Shown here piece by piece: positions 3,887 through 51,776 of a DNA stretch of 64,000 nucleotides. The stretch is from Parvularculales bacterium. GTDB taxonomy: Bacteria; Pseudomonadota; Alphaproteobacteria; JAPOUT01; JBAJNM01. Below the pieces are notes generated by a model that saw only the letters and a program-made list of their open reading frames with translations, had not been told where the DNA came from and searched no databases. How positions within the stretch are numbered: position 1 is the stretch's first letter; the number at the start of each line of letters is the position of its first letter. The stretch spans positions 3,736 through 67,735 of the forward strand of contig JBAJNM010000004.1 of the NCBI GenBank assembly GCA_036881865.1, written 5' to 3'. A program made the position numbers and the translations under genes.

Positions 3887-4591
3887 CTAGTTACCTCCGG
3901 AAATAACCGGCGGCAAAGCCGGAATATCAAGTGCCCGATGTATCATCTCAGAAGCGCCGCCCACCAGATTATCAAGACGGTTTGGGTCAGCGGTTCTTGT
4001 AGCCTCCCCCACCGCCTGCGCTATAGACCGCATAAGGGTCTGCCCCAGTTGTTTGCGGGTTAAAGGCTTAATAAAATCACCTACATTGTTTAGCTCAAGA
4101 GGTGGCATATCCACAACAATGTCACTATTTGTTTCCTCAGATGAGATAATCGACAAAGAAGCATCCTTCATGAGAAACTTGTCAATGACGTATAATGATG
4201 AACCCTGCGCATCCCACTGATCTATGTTCTGAATGACGGCTTGAAAATTACTACCCTCTTCCGTTATCTCCAATAAAAGACGCGGAGCTTCTATTTTAAT
4301 CTGCTTTAGATGTTTAACAGACCGGCCATCAGCCGTCTTTTTTCTTTCCTCATCAATATTTAAAACAACAGTAAGGCTGTCCGCAATGATAAGACCACCA
4401 CCCGCAAAACCTGCCGGATCTCCCATATAAAAATCACTGAGAACAAGCCGCCCTTCTCGAGCGCTTATATCTGCAGAGCTGATAGTAGCCACAAGCCCTG
4501 CCATAGCCAAGGCTTCTCTTTCTATAGCATTGCTAATATAGGCATCCGGCACAGCAATGCCCAAAACAAATAACATCAAGCGTTCCATCAT
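3887..4591 (-). CDS. Periplasmic LolA-like / outer-membrane lipoprotein-sorting-like protein (uncertain)
   Basis: 234 aa with an N-terminal signal peptide (MMERLMLFVLGIAVPDAYIS) and no clear catalytic motif. The family assignment is a guess. Confidence 0.35.
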   Translation of the reverse strand: MMERLMLFVLGIAVPDAYISNAIEREALAMAGLVATISSADISAREGRLVLSDFYMGDPAGFAGGGLIIADSLTVVLNIDEERKKTADGRSVKHLKQIKIEAPRLLLEITEEGSNFQAVIQNIDQWDAQGSSLYVIDKFLMKDASLSIISSEETNSDIVVDMPPLELNNVGDFIKPLTRKQLGQTLMRSIAQAVGEATRTADPNRLDNLVGGASEMIHRALDIPALPPVISGGN

Positions 4592-4648
4592 AGATTTCTC
4601 ATAACAACCACTTTAAGATGCCGTAAGCGAATTAGAACAAAATACAGA

Positions 4649-4676
4649 TTGAACACAACGGTTTCAATGTTATAAT
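4649..4676 (+). promoter_or_regulatory. Sigma70-like promoter (TTGAAC-16 nt-TATAAT) upstream of the metal module
   Basis: Read directly from the sequence. The -10 element ends about 7 nt before the ORF start, so the leader is very short. Confidence 0.4.
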
Positions 4677-4682
4677 CCGAAT

Positions 4683-5036
4683 ATGGCTGTTATGAGGACC
4701 ATATCGTTGCTGAGTATTTGCTTCGCCCTGCTTGTTAGCAATGTGACGAACGCAGCTACTGCTTGCCATATGGCAGATATAAACCAGACAACGACTGAAA
4801 TACAGATCAACCACAGCGATATGGATATGCCCTGCCATGAAATGGCAAATAATGAAGAGCAAAATTCTTCTAACTGCGATCAATGCGGTTGCCAACATTG
4901 CGTGACTATTAACGCATTACCACCATACCAATCGGTTCAAGATATTGTTGCGTCCAGAGCGAAGCCCTACGCCACACAAAGCATTTACTCATGCCATCCT
5001 GAAGGCATACTCCAACCACCTAAACATATTTCCTAA
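4683..5036 (+). CDS. Secreted Cys/His/Met-rich small protein, putative periplasmic metal-binding protein
   Basis: 117 aa with a signal peptide. The mature part is rich in C/H/M (CHMAD, DMDMPCHEMANNEE, NCDQCGCQHC, SCHPEG). It has faint HExMxN-like similarity to the SilE/PcoE type. Confidence 0.5.
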   Translation: MAVMRTISLLSICFALLVSNVTNAATACHMADINQTTTEIQINHSDMDMPCHEMANNEEQNSSNCDQCGCQHCVTINALPPYQSVQDIVASRAKPYATQSIYSCHPEGILQPPKHIS

Positions 5037-5107
5037 CTGTTCACGCCACAGGCGTGTGTTATCGGTAGTGCCTAGCACTGCCTAACAATCACTAACATTA
5101 GGAGATA

Positions 5108-5755
5108 TTGATGAGATTTTTTCTAAATATTGTCTGCATCGCCATGCTATGGGGTTCATCCGTAGCGATCGCACGCCCGGTATCTTATCCGGGTGGATGG
5201 ACAGTGATGCAAAACAATAACACAGGCGCACATGGCCTCTATGTTCATTACTCGCCTACCGCCAAATATTCCATTGGTTACAAGGCGGAATATTGGCGCG
5301 ATGAAAAGTGGCACTCTCATAGCGCACAATTGAACTATCTAGCCAAACGCTGGAATGCACCAACATCCCAAGCCAACCTATACCTAAAAACAGGTGCAGG
5401 TGTTGCCTATAGTAATTTTGGTTCATTTGATGGTGAAACAGAGCCTACCGGATTTGTGGGCATCACCTTTGATTGGGAAGATCGGCGTTATTTCAGCAGC
5501 TATGAAACCCGTGCCTACTATGCCAGAGATATAGACAAATTCTTCGTGCAGAAAGCACGGGTGGGCATTACTCCCTATATCGGAGATTACGGCGACATTC
5601 ATACATGGCTGATGCTACAGGTTGATCATACCCCCGGCAAAGACAATAAAATCACCGTCACGCCGCTCGTACGGATGTTCAAAGGTGAATATCTTGTCGA
5701 GGCTGGAATTAGCGATGATGGCGACGTTCTATTTATCTGGACAGTCAGATTATAA
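5108..5755 (+). CDS. Secreted protein, putative small outer-membrane beta-barrel
   Basis: 215 aa with signal peptide MMRFFLNIVCIAMLWGSSVAIA. It shows an alternating hydrophobic/polar strand pattern, is aromatic-rich, and its C-terminus (LFIWTVRL) looks like a terminal strand. Confidence 0.45.
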   Translation: MMRFFLNIVCIAMLWGSSVAIARPVSYPGGWTVMQNNNTGAHGLYVHYSPTAKYSIGYKAEYWRDEKWHSHSAQLNYLAKRWNAPTSQANLYLKTGAGVAYSNFGSFDGETEPTGFVGITFDWEDRRYFSSYETRAYYARDIDKFFVQKARVGITPYIGDYGDIHTWLMLQVDHTPGKDNKITVTPLVRMFKGEYLVEAGISDDGDVLFIWTVRL

Positions 5756-5765
5756 GGAGAAAATC

Positions 5766-6149
5766 ATGAAAACTTTAATCATAAAATTTGCATTTATAAC
5801 CATATTTGCAATCGCGCCGGTATGGGCTGGTCATACTGAACATAGCCACGATCATGCCGAACATGGTCACAATAACGTATCGGCAGAGAAACCTGTTACC
5901 GGAACAGAAGGTGCTTCTTGTAAGGATATTACCAACATCAAAGTTAACGGCCTTGTTTGCGATTTTTGTGCCCGTGCTATAGAAAAAGTTTTTTCTAAGC
6001 GCGACGAGGTAGCTAGTATCAATGTTGATCTGGATAATGGCTTTGTACACGTAGTGATGCGGTCAGGCAAAACCATTGATGATGATACGCTCACTCAACT
6101 TATCACTGATTCTGGTTACAATGTCACCTCAATCGAGAATCAGTGCTAG
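5766..6149 (+). CDS. Periplasmic heavy-metal-associated (HMA) domain protein, MerP-like, with a His-rich N-terminal extension
   Basis: A good RBS (AAGGAGAAAATC) precedes the ATG. The protein has a signal peptide, a His-rich stretch (GHTEHSHDHAEHGHNN), then an HMA fold whose metal loop is NGLVCDFCARAIEKVF. The ORF-track entry 5622..6149 is a 5' over-extension of this gene. Confidence 0.65.
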   Translation: MKTLIIKFAFITIFAIAPVWAGHTEHSHDHAEHGHNNVSAEKPVTGTEGASCKDITNIKVNGLVCDFCARAIEKVFSKRDEVASINVDLDNGFVHVVMRSGKTIDDDTLTQLITDSGYNVTSIENQC

Positions 6150-6607: not shown

Positions 6608-6694
6608 TGGTGCGGGCGAGGGGACTTGAACCCCTAAACCCTAATGGGTTACGGATTTTAAGTCCGCTGCGTTTACCAATTTCGCCACGCCCGC
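6608..6694 (-). tRNA. tRNA-Leu, anticodon UAA, with a long variable arm and encoded CCA
   Basis: The reverse complement reads GCGGGCGTGGCGAAATTGGTAAACGCAGCGGACTTAAAATCCGT...GGTTCAAGTCCCCTCGCCCGCACCA. It has the cloverleaf with a CU-UAA-AA anticodon loop. Confidence 0.85.
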
Positions 6695-25717: not shown

Positions 25718-26908
25718 ATGTTTGTTGACTTTTTCCATGAATTGCGTCGTGCCAGTGTGCCGGTCTCCCTGCGGGAATACCTAACCCTGCTGGAGGCGGT
25801 AGACGCCGATATCATTCACCGCAACGTAGAGGACTTCTACTATCTCTCCCGTTCGGCACTGGTAAAAGACGAACGCAACCTAGACCGCTTTGACAGAGTG
25901 TTTTCCCATGTCTTCCGAGGGCTGGACTCCCCGGATAATGATGAAGTTGCCGAAATCCCTGAAGAATGGCTCAAAGCCCTCACGGAAAAATTTCTTACCG
26001 AAGAAGAAAAAGCAGAAATTGAATCTCTCGGTGGCTGGGAAAAAATCATGGAGACTCTGCGCAAGCGTCTTGAAGAGCAAGAAAAACGTCACGAAGGCGG
26101 CAATAAATGGATAGGAACCGGCGGCACCTCTCCCTTTGGCGCTCAGGGCTATAACCCGGAAGGTGTGCGCATCGGTCAGGAGAAAGGCCGTCACGGCAAG
26201 GCCATTAAAGTTTGGGACAAGCGGGAATACCGCAACCTTGACGACACAGTGGAACTCGGAACCCGCAACATCAAAATGGCTCTGCGTCATTTGCGTCGAT
26301 TTGCACGGGCAGGCGCACCGGAAGTGCTGGATTTGGATGATACCATCCGCTCAACTGCCAACTCGGGCTATCTGGATATCAAACTTATACCGGAACGGCG
26401 CAATGCTATTAAAGTTTTGCTGTTTTTTGATATCGGCGGCTCCATGGATGGCCACATCAAACTATGTGAGGAACTCTTTTCTGCTGCGCGGATGGAATTC
26501 AAAAACATGGAGTATTTCTACTTCCACAACTGCCTCTATGAAGACGTCTGGAAGGATAATCGACGGCGATATTCGGAAAAAATACCAACATGGGATGTGC
26601 TCCACAAATATCCGTCCGACTACAAAGTAATCTTCGTAGGCGACGCCAGTATGAGCCCCTATGAAATCACATACGCAGGAGGCTCTGTAGAGCACTGGAA
26701 TGAAGAACCGGGCGGCCTATGGATTGACCGCGTTGCCCAGACTTACGAAAGCGTTGTATGGCTTAATCCGGTGGCGACAAAACACTGGGATCATACGCCG
26801 TCCATTCAGCTAATCCAGCAACTGATCGGAGATCGCATGTTTCCTCTCACCCTTGGTGGTCTGGATGAAGCCATGCGAGAACTACGCCGCCATAACACTT
26901 TAGGATAA
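25718..26908 (+). CDS. VWA domain-containing protein (CoxE-like partner of MoxR)
   Basis: 396 aa. The C-terminal VWA region (LLFFDIGGSMDG) carries a DxGxS MIDAS-like motif. Confidence 0.75.
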   Translation: MFVDFFHELRRASVPVSLREYLTLLEAVDADIIHRNVEDFYYLSRSALVKDERNLDRFDRVFSHVFRGLDSPDNDEVAEIPEEWLKALTEKFLTEEEKAEIESLGGWEKIMETLRKRLEEQEKRHEGGNKWIGTGGTSPFGAQGYNPEGVRIGQEKGRHGKAIKVWDKREYRNLDDTVELGTRNIKMALRHLRRFARAGAPEVLDLDDTIRSTANSGYLDIKLIPERRNAIKVLLFFDIGGSMDGHIKLCEELFSAARMEFKNMEYFYFHNCLYEDVWKDNRRRYSEKIPTWDVLHKYPSDYKVIFVGDASMSPYEITYAGGSVEHWNEEPGGLWIDRVAQTYESVVWLNPVATKHWDHTPSIQLIQQLIGDRMFPLTLGGLDEAMRELRRHNTLG

Positions 26909-26928
26909 ATCTGAAGAAGTACTTTCAT

Positions 26929-27642
26929 ATGATAGATATTAATTTTAATGTTTTTTCTGATACGCCTGAGGGAAAAGATCCGGATTCTCATAGTCCTACA
27001 CTTAGAAAGTATCATCAAATTCTATGGAATAAAAAATTACCTAACGGTAAGAATTTTAAATTAGATCTTGATACCCCAAAATTACTTCACCACAAATCAG
27101 ATTTAGGGGAATTTTATTTATCAAGTGATCAGATCACAAATACTTATAGTGACGTAAAAAAGATGTCACATATAATCAATCAACTCACGCATGATGAAAT
27201 CAATAGTTTTTCTTCTATTCGTGCCACAATTGCAGGACATATGATTTTTCCATCAAAAAAAATTGATAACAAAATGACAATTAATGGCGCTAGAGGATGG
27301 GATCGTAAAATACAAGATAGATTTGATCTTACCTTAGAATGTATCAGACTTTTTTATATGAAAAAAAGCAGTCCATTAAGTGACGTATTTCAGCGTTATT
27401 CCTCTTTCTTTTTACTCTTTGATAATTTTAAAGGGTATGTGGATTTTTTTCTTTTACAAGATTTAGTTGATCAAGATTATGCCTCAATCAAGTTTTGGCA
27501 TCCTTTTACTGGTTTTCAAGATTCTCCACTGCCCCAAAATGCATCAGAGTATCGTGAGTATAGAAATAGAGTTATAAAACTTTTAAATGGACGAAATCAA
27601 AGAGTTTTAGAATTTTGTAGGAATATGCCTACCGCTCAATAA
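26929..27642 (+). CDS. Hypothetical protein, AT-rich orphan; no recognisable domain
   Basis: 237 aa, clean ORF, rich in F/Y/K/N. There is a 20-nt gap after the VWA gene. Its GC is much lower than the flanks. Confidence 0.5.
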   Translation: MIDINFNVFSDTPEGKDPDSHSPTLRKYHQILWNKKLPNGKNFKLDLDTPKLLHHKSDLGEFYLSSDQITNTYSDVKKMSHIINQLTHDEINSFSSIRATIAGHMIFPSKKIDNKMTINGARGWDRKIQDRFDLTLECIRLFYMKKSSPLSDVFQRYSSFFLLFDNFKGYVDFFLLQDLVDQDYASIKFWHPFTGFQDSPLPQNASEYREYRNRVIKLLNGRNQRVLEFCRNMPTAQ

Positions 27643-49009: not shown

Positions 49010-50107
49010 ATGGGTTTCAAATGCGGCATTGTTGGCTTGCCCAATGTAGGTAAATCTACTCTTTTTAACGCTCTTACCAAAACGGCCTCCGCTCAGGCGG
49101 CTAATTATCCCTTTTGCACCATTGAACCCAATGTCGGGGATGTGGCCGTGCCAGATGATCGCCTTGAGGCTTTGGGCACACTGGCAAAATCGGCGCGCAT
49201 TGTGCCAACGCGTTTGATGTTTGTTGACATTGCCGGTCTGGTGCAAGGGGCCGCCAAGGGCGAGGGATTGGGCAATCAGTTTTTGGCCAACATACGTGAG
49301 GTAGATGCCATCATTCACGTTCTGCGTTGTTTTGAAGATGATGATATTACCCATGTGGAAGGACGGGTTGACCCGGTAGCGGACGCTCAAATTGTCACTA
49401 CGGAACTCATGTTGGCGGATATGGAAAGTCTGGAAAAACGCCGGGTAGTGTTAGAGAAAAAAGTACGTGGACAAGATGCAGAGGCCAAAGAAACGTTAGT
49501 TCTTGTAGATGACGCGCTGGCCCTGCTGCGAGAAGGCAAGCCGGCGCGGGATGCTGTCATCACCCCCGAAAAACAAGCCTTGTGGCAGCGGTTACAACTT
49601 TTGACCACACAGCCTGTTTTGTATATCTGCAATGTGGCTGAAGAACACGCCGCAACCGGCAATAACCACACGCAGGCAGTCACAGAACTAGCGCAATCCG
49701 AAGGCGCAGGTGCTCTTGTGATTGCCGTGCGCACAGAAGAAGAACTGGCTCTTCTTGATGACGAAGAACAGATAGAATATCTTGCAGCCCTTAACCTTGA
49801 GGAACCGGGTTTAATGCGTCTTATTCGTGCAGGATATGCTCTTTTGGGTCTGATTACGTGGTTTACCGCAGGACCCAAAGAGGCTCGCGCCTGGACATCG
49901 CCCTCAACAAGTTTAGCGCCTCAAGCGGCAGGCATTATTCACAGCGATTTTGAAAAAAGTTTTATCCGCGCCGAGATTATTCCTTATGATGATTATGTTT
50001 CTCTTGGCGGCTATAACGCCGCACGGGAGTCAGGCAAACTTCGATTGGAAGGCAAGGAGTATGTCATGCAAGATGGTGACGTTGTTTTGTTTCGCACAGG
50101 TAATTAG
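49010..50107 (+). CDS. ychF: Redox-regulated ATPase YchF (Obg-family GTPase)
   Basis: G1 motif GLPNVGKST plus a C-terminal TGS domain. Confidence 0.9.
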   Translation: MGFKCGIVGLPNVGKSTLFNALTKTASAQAANYPFCTIEPNVGDVAVPDDRLEALGTLAKSARIVPTRLMFVDIAGLVQGAAKGEGLGNQFLANIREVDAIIHVLRCFEDDDITHVEGRVDPVADAQIVTTELMLADMESLEKRRVVLEKKVRGQDAEAKETLVLVDDALALLREGKPARDAVITPEKQALWQRLQLLTTQPVLYICNVAEEHAATGNNHTQAVTELAQSEGAGALVIAVRTEEELALLDDEEQIEYLAALNLEEPGLMRLIRAGYALLGLITWFTAGPKEARAWTSPSTSLAPQAAGIIHSDFEKSFIRAEIIPYDDYVSLGGYNAARESGKLRLEGKEYVMQDGDVVLFRTGN

Positions 50108-50163
50108 AGACGTCCATATCTGGCCACAACAGTCATAGCGGAATGTTATTAATAGGAGGGCGT

Positions 50164-50869
50164 GATGACCGAAGAAGAACTTGAAGAACTTATCGAGAAC
50201 TGTCCTAAACTTTATCATATGGCCGAAAGAGGCTCTTGGTCTTCAATAGAAAAACAAGGTTTATTCAGCACAAGTGCACTCCTTGACCTGTATGGTTATA
50301 CAGGGGAAGAGCGATAAGCCATAGAAGAGAGATGGCGATCAAAATCAAAACCCATAGAAGAACAGCATCGCCAAGAATGTGTTGATATTAACAATCCCTC
50401 TTTACCAAGAGGTGTGGTGATAAGAGACCAAGGCCCCATGAGCGAGGAAGATCTTCAGCAATGCTTGCCTAAGGACATTACACCTGCCGACTGGTATAGG
50501 ACGCTAAATAGAAAGGTTTTCTTTTGGTTAACAGAAGAAAGATTATTTAGACTGACTTCAGCAAGAGCCTACAGAAATAGAAAACATGATGTCCTCGAAA
50601 TATGCACACACTCTCTAATCGAAGCACACCGAAGTAAAATATGGCTTTGTCCTATAAATAGCGGATTTGCAAAATTTCACAACAGAAGAGACCATAATAC
50701 TTTTTCAAGAATCTGTTGTTACCCATATGGGGAGATGAAGAAGAAAGACCAAGCAGGAAAACCATGGGTGGTAGAATTGACCGTTGACTATTCAGTTCCT
50801 GATATTGCGCAGCATGTTGTAAGTGTTAAGGAGATACAGGGGAAAACAACAATCTCAACTATAAAATAG
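50164..50869 (+). pseudogene. Disrupted gene for an ADP-ribosyltransferase-fold (DarT/DUF4433-like) protein. The N-terminal segment is at 50164..50316, stopped by a TAA at about 50314-50316, and the remainder is the listed ORF 50414..50869
   Basis: An AGGAGGG RBS precedes an ATG giving MTEEELEELIENCPKLYHMAERGSWSSIEKQGLFSTSALLDLYGYTGEER followed by a stop. Downstream, VVIRDQGPMSEE...ADWYRTLNRKVFFWLTEERLFRL...KPWVVELTVDYSVPDIAQHVV continues the same protein architecture. The N-terminal LYH...GL motif and central VFFW resemble DarT. GC is lower than both flanks. Confidence 0.5.
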
Positions 50870-50969
50870 CTGAAAAATCATGATACCTATATTTCCGGTG
50901 ACCATGTCTATACTTCCATCCATGGCCCACATTAAACTCGCCGCTACCTTCAATGACGATTACGCCAGA

Positions 50970-51776
50970 TTAGTGAGCGTCAGTCCACACTTTGCGCATG
51001 GCAAAAAAGAACAACCCTGCCAGAATTACAAGATAAATCAGCACCTGAAAGCCAATCCGCTTGCGCTCCTCCATTTTGGGCTCCGCCGCCCACGTCAGAA
51101 ACTGCACGACATCTCTTGCCATCTGATCAACGGTTTCCGGTGTGCCATCGGCATAATCCACTATCTCGTCTGATAGGGGCGGCGCCATGGCAACCAAACC
51201 GCCGGAAAAATAAGGATTGTAATATTGTCCCCCCGGAACCGTAACCCCCTCCGGCGCTGCCTCCCCATACCCCGTCAAAAGAGAATAGATATAATCCGAC
51301 CCATCAAAATACGACTTGGCTACAAGAGACAAATCCGGCGGCAAAGCCCCGCCATTGGCAACCCGCGCGGCTTGCTCATTAGGAAAGGGCGACACAAACG
51401 CATCCTTTGGCAACGCCGGACGAGTGAACATGTCGCCTTCTTGGTCAGGCCCGTCTTCCACTTCATGTTCAGCTGCCAGAGCCTTAACCTCTTCAGCACT
51501 GAACGCCGGACCACCCTCATCGCCCAAATTGCGATAGGACAAAAACCGCATGCTATGGCAAGAAGCACAGACCTCCGTATAAACCTGATACCCACGGCGC
51601 AGAGCATCACGATCGTAGAGACCAAATGGCCCCTCAAAAGACCAACCCGGCTGCTTGAGGGTGCGCTGCTCCCCGGCAGCCCATGATAATCCCGCCCCAC
51701 CCACAACACCGGCGATGCCAACAATCGCCAACAAAGATAACGCCAGCGCAGAGCTTCTCACTATCACAAGCCTCAC
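50970..51776 (-). CDS. petC: Cytochrome c1 (bc1 complex)
   Basis: CxxCH heme motif (CASCHS) and a C-terminal membrane anchor. Confidence 0.85.

Follow-up and report, generated by a model that had tools for sequence, protein, structure and literature searches.

The interval examined here, positions 50108-50969 of a 64,000-nucleotide stretch of a Parvularculales bacterium contig (hereafter the window), lies between ychF and petC and carries a broken gene of the DUF7002 family, whose members are predicted to have an ADP-ribosyltransferase (ART) fold. We think it probable that this interval is a decaying relic of a three-gene cassette acquired by horizontal transfer, in which the last gene, gene C (DUF7002), has been knocked out by a 33-bp insertion. 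The two other genes, known from relatives, encode a fusion of an M78 peptidase with a macrodomain (protein A) and a fusion of a kinase with a PurA-like enzyme (protein B). A sequence-only reading of the same DNA had described a disrupted, DarT-like lone toxin gene in a low-GC insertion, a description that is incomplete, as the gene is the 3' remnant of a cassette whose first gene bears a macrodomain in relatives.

Translation of 50165-50869 gives 234 codons with a single internal TAA at codon 51 (50315-50317), and the remaining two frames contain many stops. The sequence-only reading quoted the sequence exactly, placed the initiating ATG one base early (at 50164; the actual start is 50165) and left the lesion as either a stop or a frameshift. 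Both open reading frames (ORFs), 50162-50317 and 50414-50869, share one frame, and the lesion is therefore an in-frame nonsense codon and not a frameshift. The broken gene comprises the following parts.

50165-50314, plus strand: codons 1-50 of DUF7002, the N-terminal part, which alone matches positions 1-37 of the Pfam profile (E=3e-10) and includes the invariant His18 (strand 1) and Ser35/Thr36.

50315-50347, plus strand: in-frame 33-bp insertion private to the window copy, the first codon of which is the premature TAA.

50316-50361, plus strand: direct repeat bracketing the insertion, identical at 12/13 nt, with its copies 33 bp apart (AAGCCATAGAAGA at 50316 and AACCCATAGAAGA at 50349).

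50348-50869, plus strand: remainder of DUF7002, the C-terminal ~173 codons and the TAG at 50867-50869, which alone matches profile positions 36-195 (E=3e-47).

The C-terminal remainder holds the other family-invariant residues, including the Glu of the 'VVEL' strand (Glu204, window numbering). In alignment, the 33-bp insertion is missing from 119/119 intact homologues, and no further copy of it occurs within the window. Removing exactly 50315-50347 restores an uninterrupted 223-codon ORF that aligns to the family gap-free across the region, so that one insertion can account for both the stop and the extra residues. Simple tandem duplication was considered as the origin of the insertion and rejected, as the repeated part is confined to the first 13 nt; the other ~19-23 nt agree no better than chance (18/33 overall). 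The 12/13 match of the repeat was itself reached in 3/200 shuffles. A direct repeat bracketing exactly 33 bp speaks for a reversible, phase-variable switch from which the insertion could be excised to restore the gene, but we judge such a switch extremely improbable, because recombination between the repeat copies would retain the TAA: its T (50315) lies outside the repeat, and the product would read 'CGA TAA GCC ATA GAA GAA…'. The repeat is also short and imperfect, and no insertion-free variant contig was found.

The same sequence was recovered in a second assembly, as the Logan assembly of SRR27962760 (L081, 1556 bp) is an exact substring of window 49822-51377, TAA included; the window is the consensus of a metagenome-assembled genome (MAG), and the Logan contig was probably derived from the same reads. 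The NCBI annotation covers the last 143 residues alone (window 50438-50869, hypothetical protein V6Z81_02110), the Logan gene calls include both the 50-residue and the 143-residue pieces, and neither carries a pseudogene flag. The NCBI entry for the 143-residue 'hypothetical protein' should read pseudogene.

The conceptual protein matches Pfam DUF7002 (PF22531) over profile positions 1-195/195 with 204.7 bits (cut-off 27; E=1.4e-60), in an alignment that spans the stop. Since this match crosses the stop and each half also matches alone, far beyond chance, both halves belong to one protein family, as the sequence-only reading had proposed, and the related alphaproteobacterial DUF family that it mentioned is DUF7002. 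A search of 5.8 billion proteins returned 1,238 homologues of the window protein; among the matches listed, these are uninterrupted and mostly ~222 residues long, apart from the window's own 143-residue fragment, and the closest is 59% identical. An exhaustive profile search gave 1,642 DUF7002 clusters at 50% identity. The uninterrupted ORF of ~222 residues is free of internal stops in 76/80 genomic copies, the window copy being broken at codon 51. NCBIfam holds no model for the window protein, no second DUF7002 copy is present in the window, and a literature search found no paper on DUF7002 or PF22531.

Membership in DarT (DUF4433), which had been proposed from motif resemblance, does not hold. 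The window protein has no DarT profile match at E<=10 in Pfam or PADLOC and none in NCBIfam, 0/119 intact DUF7002 members match PF14487 at E<=10 in Pfam, and the DUF7002 family profile finds no match among PDB sequences, DarT entries included. Given the lack of a DarT profile match in these collections, the motif 'matches' are not a valid test of membership.

The ART fold, by comparison, finds support in a structural model. We modelled the closest intact homologue, P0002, with AlphaFold2 and a 119-sequence alignment (predicted local distance difference test score 91.6, predicted template modelling score 0.87), and the model has an ART fold with DarT-type architecture. The top eight Foldseek matches to it are all DarT, with modest template modelling (TM) scores of 0.35-0.45 and 10-16% sequence identity in the structural alignments; no viral structural analogue was found below E=1e-3. 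DUF7002 is accordingly predicted to be an ADP-ribosyltransferase fold whose nearest solved structures are DarT1 and DarT2, a link visible in structure only. The residues invariant in the family are His18 (strand 1, 'LYH'), Arg69, Arg87-Asp88-Gln89 and Glu204 ('VVEL' strand; all in window numbering). DarT catalysis employs an H-Y/S-E triad and an Arg for base ADP-ribosylation, with Y71 in DarT2 and S63/R52/D54/E152 in DarT1 (PMC11543638), and the invariant residues of DUF7002 appear compatible with this H-Y/S-E logic. Intact DUF7002 may move ADP-ribose from NAD+ to a macromolecular target.

Each product of the broken gene, the 50-residue N-terminal peptide and the C-terminal fragment, is without strands of the modelled core. 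Because neither fragment would be able to form the six-stranded ART core, the locus is predicted to be without enzymatic function today. We consider it very unlikely that the C-terminal fragment (143-151 residues, from GTG 50414 or ATG 50438) is expressed with a residual or new function. Both the NCBI and Logan gene callers call it and most invariant residues are present, the 'VVEL' Glu among them, but strand 1 (His18) is missing from it, together with the Ser/Thr35-36 segment and the two strands that follow in the modelled core. Neither GTG 50414 nor ATG 50438 has a Shine-Dalgarno-like sequence at a usable distance, and among the family members listed none is naturally so short except contig-end fragments.

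Immediately upstream of gene C we found what is left of gene B.

50136-50168, plus strand: stub of gene B, its last ~10 codons and stop, reading stop-RNVINRRA-stop-stop where the C-terminus of B reads NWRNVIDRRAW-stop.

50154-50159, plus strand: AGGAGG, a Shine-Dalgarno-like hexamer 5 nt before ATG 50165.

Both Trp codons of the stub are now stops (TAG 50136-50138 and TGA 50163-50165), and the original TGA comes next, at 50166-50168. In intact cassettes DUF7002 starts with a GTG that overlaps the TGG-TGA of B, and a single G-to-A change has turned the last Trp codon of B into TGA and the GTG start into the ATG of the window; the TGGTGA junction is present here as a relic, its TGG mutated to TGA. 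DNA alignment with nine cassette loci gives ~83% identity from 50136 on (junction 50136-50170) and an almost random match before it, and this jump puts the left breakpoint 28 bp beyond the end of ychF. The stub escaped BLAST because it is too short (tblastn of A and B proteins from nine loci against the whole window gave nothing below E=0.05), and was found by translating the 57 bp upstream and by DNA alignment. Apart from it, neither tblastn nor the upstream translation revealed a macrodomain or other partner remnant in the window. The claim that no macrodomain partner is adjacent holds for the window, where the B stub is all that is left of the partner genes. A ribosome-binding site had likewise been read before the ATG; AGGAGG is indeed there, and at the same position in L002 and L082, but it also constitutes the Arg-Arg codons of the B stub. 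This double role, the stub itself and the 11-codon insertion at the stop were missed by the sequence-only reading. The same stub occurs in the truncated cassettes L007, L016, L026, L029, L047 and L052. Four of these (L007, L016, L026 and L047) retain an intact DUF7002 preceded, ~60 nt before position 6001, by the final 12-50 codons of B; loss of the upstream genes while the ART gene stays is therefore recurrent.

Of 128 matching stretches among ~185,000 species genomes, 80 loci, mostly from Alphaproteobacteria, were retrieved. In 31/80 loci DUF7002 is the last gene of a same-strand three-gene operon with overlapping stops and starts, and P0002 likewise lies inside such an operon. Loci with the operon before an intact DUF7002 include L002, L004, L008, L011, L015 and L082 (5037-8693 in the last), and cultured carriers include Methyloligella sp. 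GL2, Sulfitobacter sp. D35, Roseibium suaedae DSM 22153 and Novosphingobium mathurense SM117. The sequence-only reading had suggested checking relatives for an intact copy and a neighbouring antitoxin: intact DUF7002 copies occur there, and the operon of the 31 genomes encodes a macrodomain, though not next to the ART gene. Three further loci (L033, L048 and L067) have a complete kinase-PurA-like gene upstream with no protein A detectable there, and may represent a variant cassette with another first gene; L041 has the full cassette with a stop inside the partner-gene alignment.

Protein A (~445 residues) comprises an N-terminal IrrE/M78 peptidase domain, present in 26/26 members, fused to a C-terminal macrodomain. 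The N-terminal domain matches PADLOC CapP (5e-14) and an IrrE structure (9e-6). The macrodomain profile matches 2fg1, 2afc and 5e3b/SCO6735 at 1e-33 to 1e-35 and TARG1/OARD1 at ~4e-7; the match to DarG reaches just 1e-3 (PADLOC; PDB 5m31). SCO6735-type macrodomains belong, like DarG, to the TARG1/ALC1 branch and strip mono-ADP-ribose in vitro; SCO6735 itself does so from protein glutamate, and is DNA-damage-inducible (PMC8120803). The macrodomain of A may undo the modification that DUF7002 would make. Protein B (~543 residues) is an AdkA-like P-loop kinase fused to a short PurA/PurZ-like adenylosuccinate synthetase, residues ~190-543 matching short archaeal-type PurA (5k7x, 2d7u; 1e-52) and PurZ (7odx; 3e-30). 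No description of the cassette or of an M78-macrodomain fusion was found in a literature search.

The composition of this operon also bears on whether the window gene is the pseudogene of a true DarT (DUF4433) toxin from a DarTG toxin-antitoxin system. DarT1 and DarT2 are the nearest solved folds and the relatives' operon has a macrodomain gene with a weak DarG match, but we regard this origin as very unlikely given the missing DarT profile matches, the low structural-alignment identities and TM-scores, and an operon of three genes in which the macrodomain is of SCO6735/BT1257 type, fused to M78 and not next to the ART gene.

The genes around the cassettes vary: some are integrase, restriction-modification, AbiJ, Wadjet-like and CHAT genes, while others are ribosomal or metabolic. 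On these heterogeneous flanks the cassette behaves as a mobile module; for the same reason a defence-island test of the flanks gives no firm conclusion.

Comparison with the 119 intact members reveals a mildly degraded copy. The indels private to the window copy are all in-frame (+11 codons next to the stop; +1, -1 and +1 at other places), and the copy departs from the family at 5/68 columns that are at least 95% conserved, where the median is 1 and 3/119 intact members reach 5; one of the five departures is T169A, at a Thr otherwise invariant in the family. In a neighbour-joining tree of 80 sequences the window copy has the longest terminal branch and nests in a cassette-associated clade, beside two intact solo copies (L001 and L021) from Rhodobiaceae MAGs. 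Three other genomes each have one premature stop in a DUF7002 gene that is conserved apart from it, and the three stops lie at different places.

L029, 6001-6666: stop at the invariant Trp of D-W-Y; truncated cassette with a B stub.

L043, 1272-1913: stop at Tyr43.

L052, 6001-6636: stop in 'PHPRD'; truncated cassette with a B stub and an 8-residue tandem duplication, 'ILVLDTRK' occurring twice.

When loci are grouped by what precedes DUF7002, the premature stops are distributed as follows.

Full cassette, 31 loci: 0 with a premature stop.

Solo gene with no stub, 28 loci: 0 with a premature stop.

Truncated cassette, window excluded, 11 loci: 2 with a premature stop.

Upstream sequence too short to classify, 9 loci: 1 with a premature stop.

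Comparing truncated with full cassettes by Fisher's test, we obtain p=0.064 when the window is left out and p=0.018 when it is counted. The pattern fits either the overall degeneration of dying cassettes or selection acting against an effector without partners.

The site of insertion could be compared in the nearest available relatives, in which PetC is 61-67% identical and the convergent order petABC, ychF-pth-L25 is kept. None of these four (L083-L086) has a DUF7002 gene, intact or disrupted, at the petC/ychF junction.

L084: petC/ychF gap of 95 bp, an empty site.

L083, 5784-6552: 769-bp gap of unrelated sequence with two small unannotated ORFs (84 and 50 residues).

L085, 5823-9165, and L086, 5853-7031: a PNP_UDP_1 gene and other genes inserted.

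The junction is a variable, permissive spot, and the insertion in the window is lineage-specific. The inactivation of a toxin-like gene within a housekeeping neighbourhood, which had been singled out as remarkable, is weakened as an observation by this variable junction and by the 28 intact solo copies.

Within the window, the interval 50108-50969 fills exactly the space from the ychF stop (50105-50107) to the petC stop (50970-50972), the two genes being convergent; upstream of ychF come pth and L25, and beyond petC come petB and petA. The remaining features of the locus are these.

49010-50107, plus strand: ychF (Pfam MMR_HSR1 and YchF-GTPase_C), ending in TAG 50105-50107; the native left flank, convergent with petC in relatives too.

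50108-50135, no strand: 28 bp without cassette similarity, native intergenic DNA or unrelated filler, at the end of which lies the left breakpoint of the foreign DNA.

50870-50969, no strand: 100-bp spacer from the DUF7002 stop to the petC stop, with no terminator, repeat or RNA family detected.

50970-51776, minus strand: petC, cytochrome c1 (Pfam Cytochrom_C1, 6e-96), the native right flank; its product is 100% identical to NCBI 'cytochrome c1 [Parvularculales bacterium]'.

The description of a low-GC insertion between ychF and petC was confirmed, with Pfam supporting both flanks. The GC content of the gap is 0.411 against a window mean of 0.498 (standard deviation 0.03), equally low values occur in just 1.7% of 862-bp windows, and GC at third codon positions is 0.34 in the DUF7002 gene and 0.39-0.56 in neighbouring genes. 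The DNA of the gap looks foreign by composition. A repeat search of the insert borders gave no target-site duplication or terminal inverted repeat above chance-sized matches, no tRNA lies near them, no Rfam family was found on either strand, and promoter and terminator scans stayed at background level.

Two other low-GC stretches were observed in the window. The stronger, at ~26300-27400, reaches an 862-bp GC minimum of 0.316 and contains an intact ORF of 237 residues (26929-27642, plus strand) that aligns with Pfam DUF6994 (PF22507; E=9e-90) over the full length. Placed between a VWA_CoxE-like gene on one side and a class-I methyltransferase gene on the other, this ORF appears to be a further foreign insertion of a single gene from an uncharacterised family. 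The third and milder stretch, at ~3950-5800 (862-bp GC 0.42-0.44), lies near the window's only tRNA, tRNA-Leu(taa), at 6608-6694 on the minus strand.

We propose the following history for the locus. A cassette of genes A, B and C (the last of ~222 residues) would have been acquired horizontally and reduced to gene C and the final ~10 codons of B within the convergent petC/ychF gap. Gene C would then have been kept long enough to diverge, its private indels all being in-frame and 63/68 conserved sites retained, until a single 33-bp insertion beginning with TAA disabled it; the present product would be an N-terminal peptide of 50 residues at most. Loss of A and B may have left C useless or harmful, which would have favoured its inactivation.

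Several observations weigh against this account. All indels are in-frame, the invariant residues are kept bar T169A and a strong Shine-Dalgarno sequence precedes the ATG, so the inactivation must be recent and the signal of 'decay' is mild. The long branch could stem partly from unsampled close relatives and AT-biased drift, and the association of truncation with stops is weak and was drawn post hoc. Intact solo copies, 28 in number and with L001 and L021 among them, argue against an obligate toxin/antidote dependence on adjacent A and B, and a literature search found no paper reporting enzymatic activity of any DUF7002 protein. Finally, an intact allele could coexist in the population, the window being a MAG consensus and the Logan contig having probably come from the same reads.

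This last point leads to an alternative that we hold to be improbable though not negligible, in which the gene is an intact, functional solo DUF7002 and the TAA and 33-bp insertion are a minority allele, a MAG consensus artefact or a strain variant. The intact sister solo copies speak for it, as do the retention of 63/68 conserved positions and of all putative catalytic residues, the solely in-frame indels and the Shine-Dalgarno sequence 5 nt before the ATG. However, two assemblers returned the identical sequence, a 33-bp insertion is implausible as a base-calling error, the copy combines the longest branch with excess departures at conserved sites, and the adjoining B stub has two more nonsense changes. 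We therefore prefer the inactivated cassette remnant. On this reading the window locus is a commonplace leftover of horizontal transfer that lost its function recently, and the foreign gene fragment, now dead and lying in a permissive gap between genes, is of little import for the host genome.

The parent cassette is of wider significance, being apparently an undescribed variant of the ART-plus-macrodomain theme. From the structural model, DUF7002 can now be assigned an ADP-ribosyltransferase fold nearest to that of DarT, and its usual partners, the macrodomain-peptidase fusion and the kinase-PurA-like enzyme, predict a reversible ADP-ribosylation system with an architecture unlike that of DarTG. 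This prediction is directly testable in cultured carriers such as Methyloligella sp. GL2, Sulfitobacter sp. D35 and Roseibium suaedae DSM 22153. The recurrence of truncated cassettes with nonsense-disrupted DUF7002 suggests, though only weakly and by comparison, that an ART lacking its partners is a burden or of no use. More tentatively, and with rather less than even confidence, we suggest that DUF7002 cassettes, which occur mainly in Alphaproteobacteria, could be a hitherto undescribed conflict system of three genes (defensive or toxin-antitoxin-like) that works by ADP-ribosylation. Its effector would be a DarT-like ART, its sensor and antidote an IrrE/CapP-type peptidase fused to a SCO6735-type macrodomain, and the kinase-PurA/PurZ-like enzyme would produce or alter a nucleotide. 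In that case the window locus would be one among several cassettes truncated independently, its effector knocked out after partner loss.

Measured against known families and systems, the window copy is a full-length member of Pfam DUF7002 by profile and by the conserved columns it keeps, and differs from that family by the TAA and 11-codon insertion, three more private one-codon indels, T169A and its branch length. No sequence-profile relationship was detected between DUF7002 and DarT (DarT1, DarT2; PF14487, DUF4433). DarTG is a two-gene operon, whereas the DUF7002 operon has three genes, and its SCO6735/BT1257-type, M78-fused macrodomain is separated from the ART gene by the kinase-PurA-like gene. 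Tpt1/KptA RNA 2'-phosphotransferases and classical ART toxins (cholera toxin/LT, pertussis S1 and OspC3) score below DarT and have accessory elements and gene contexts unlike those of DUF7002. The domains of protein A match SCO6735-type macrodomains and IrrE/ImmA/CapP M78 peptidases, but here the two are fused and linked to an ART-fold gene; likewise, protein B matches PurA and phage PurZ but is fused to a kinase and encoded within an ART/macrodomain operon.
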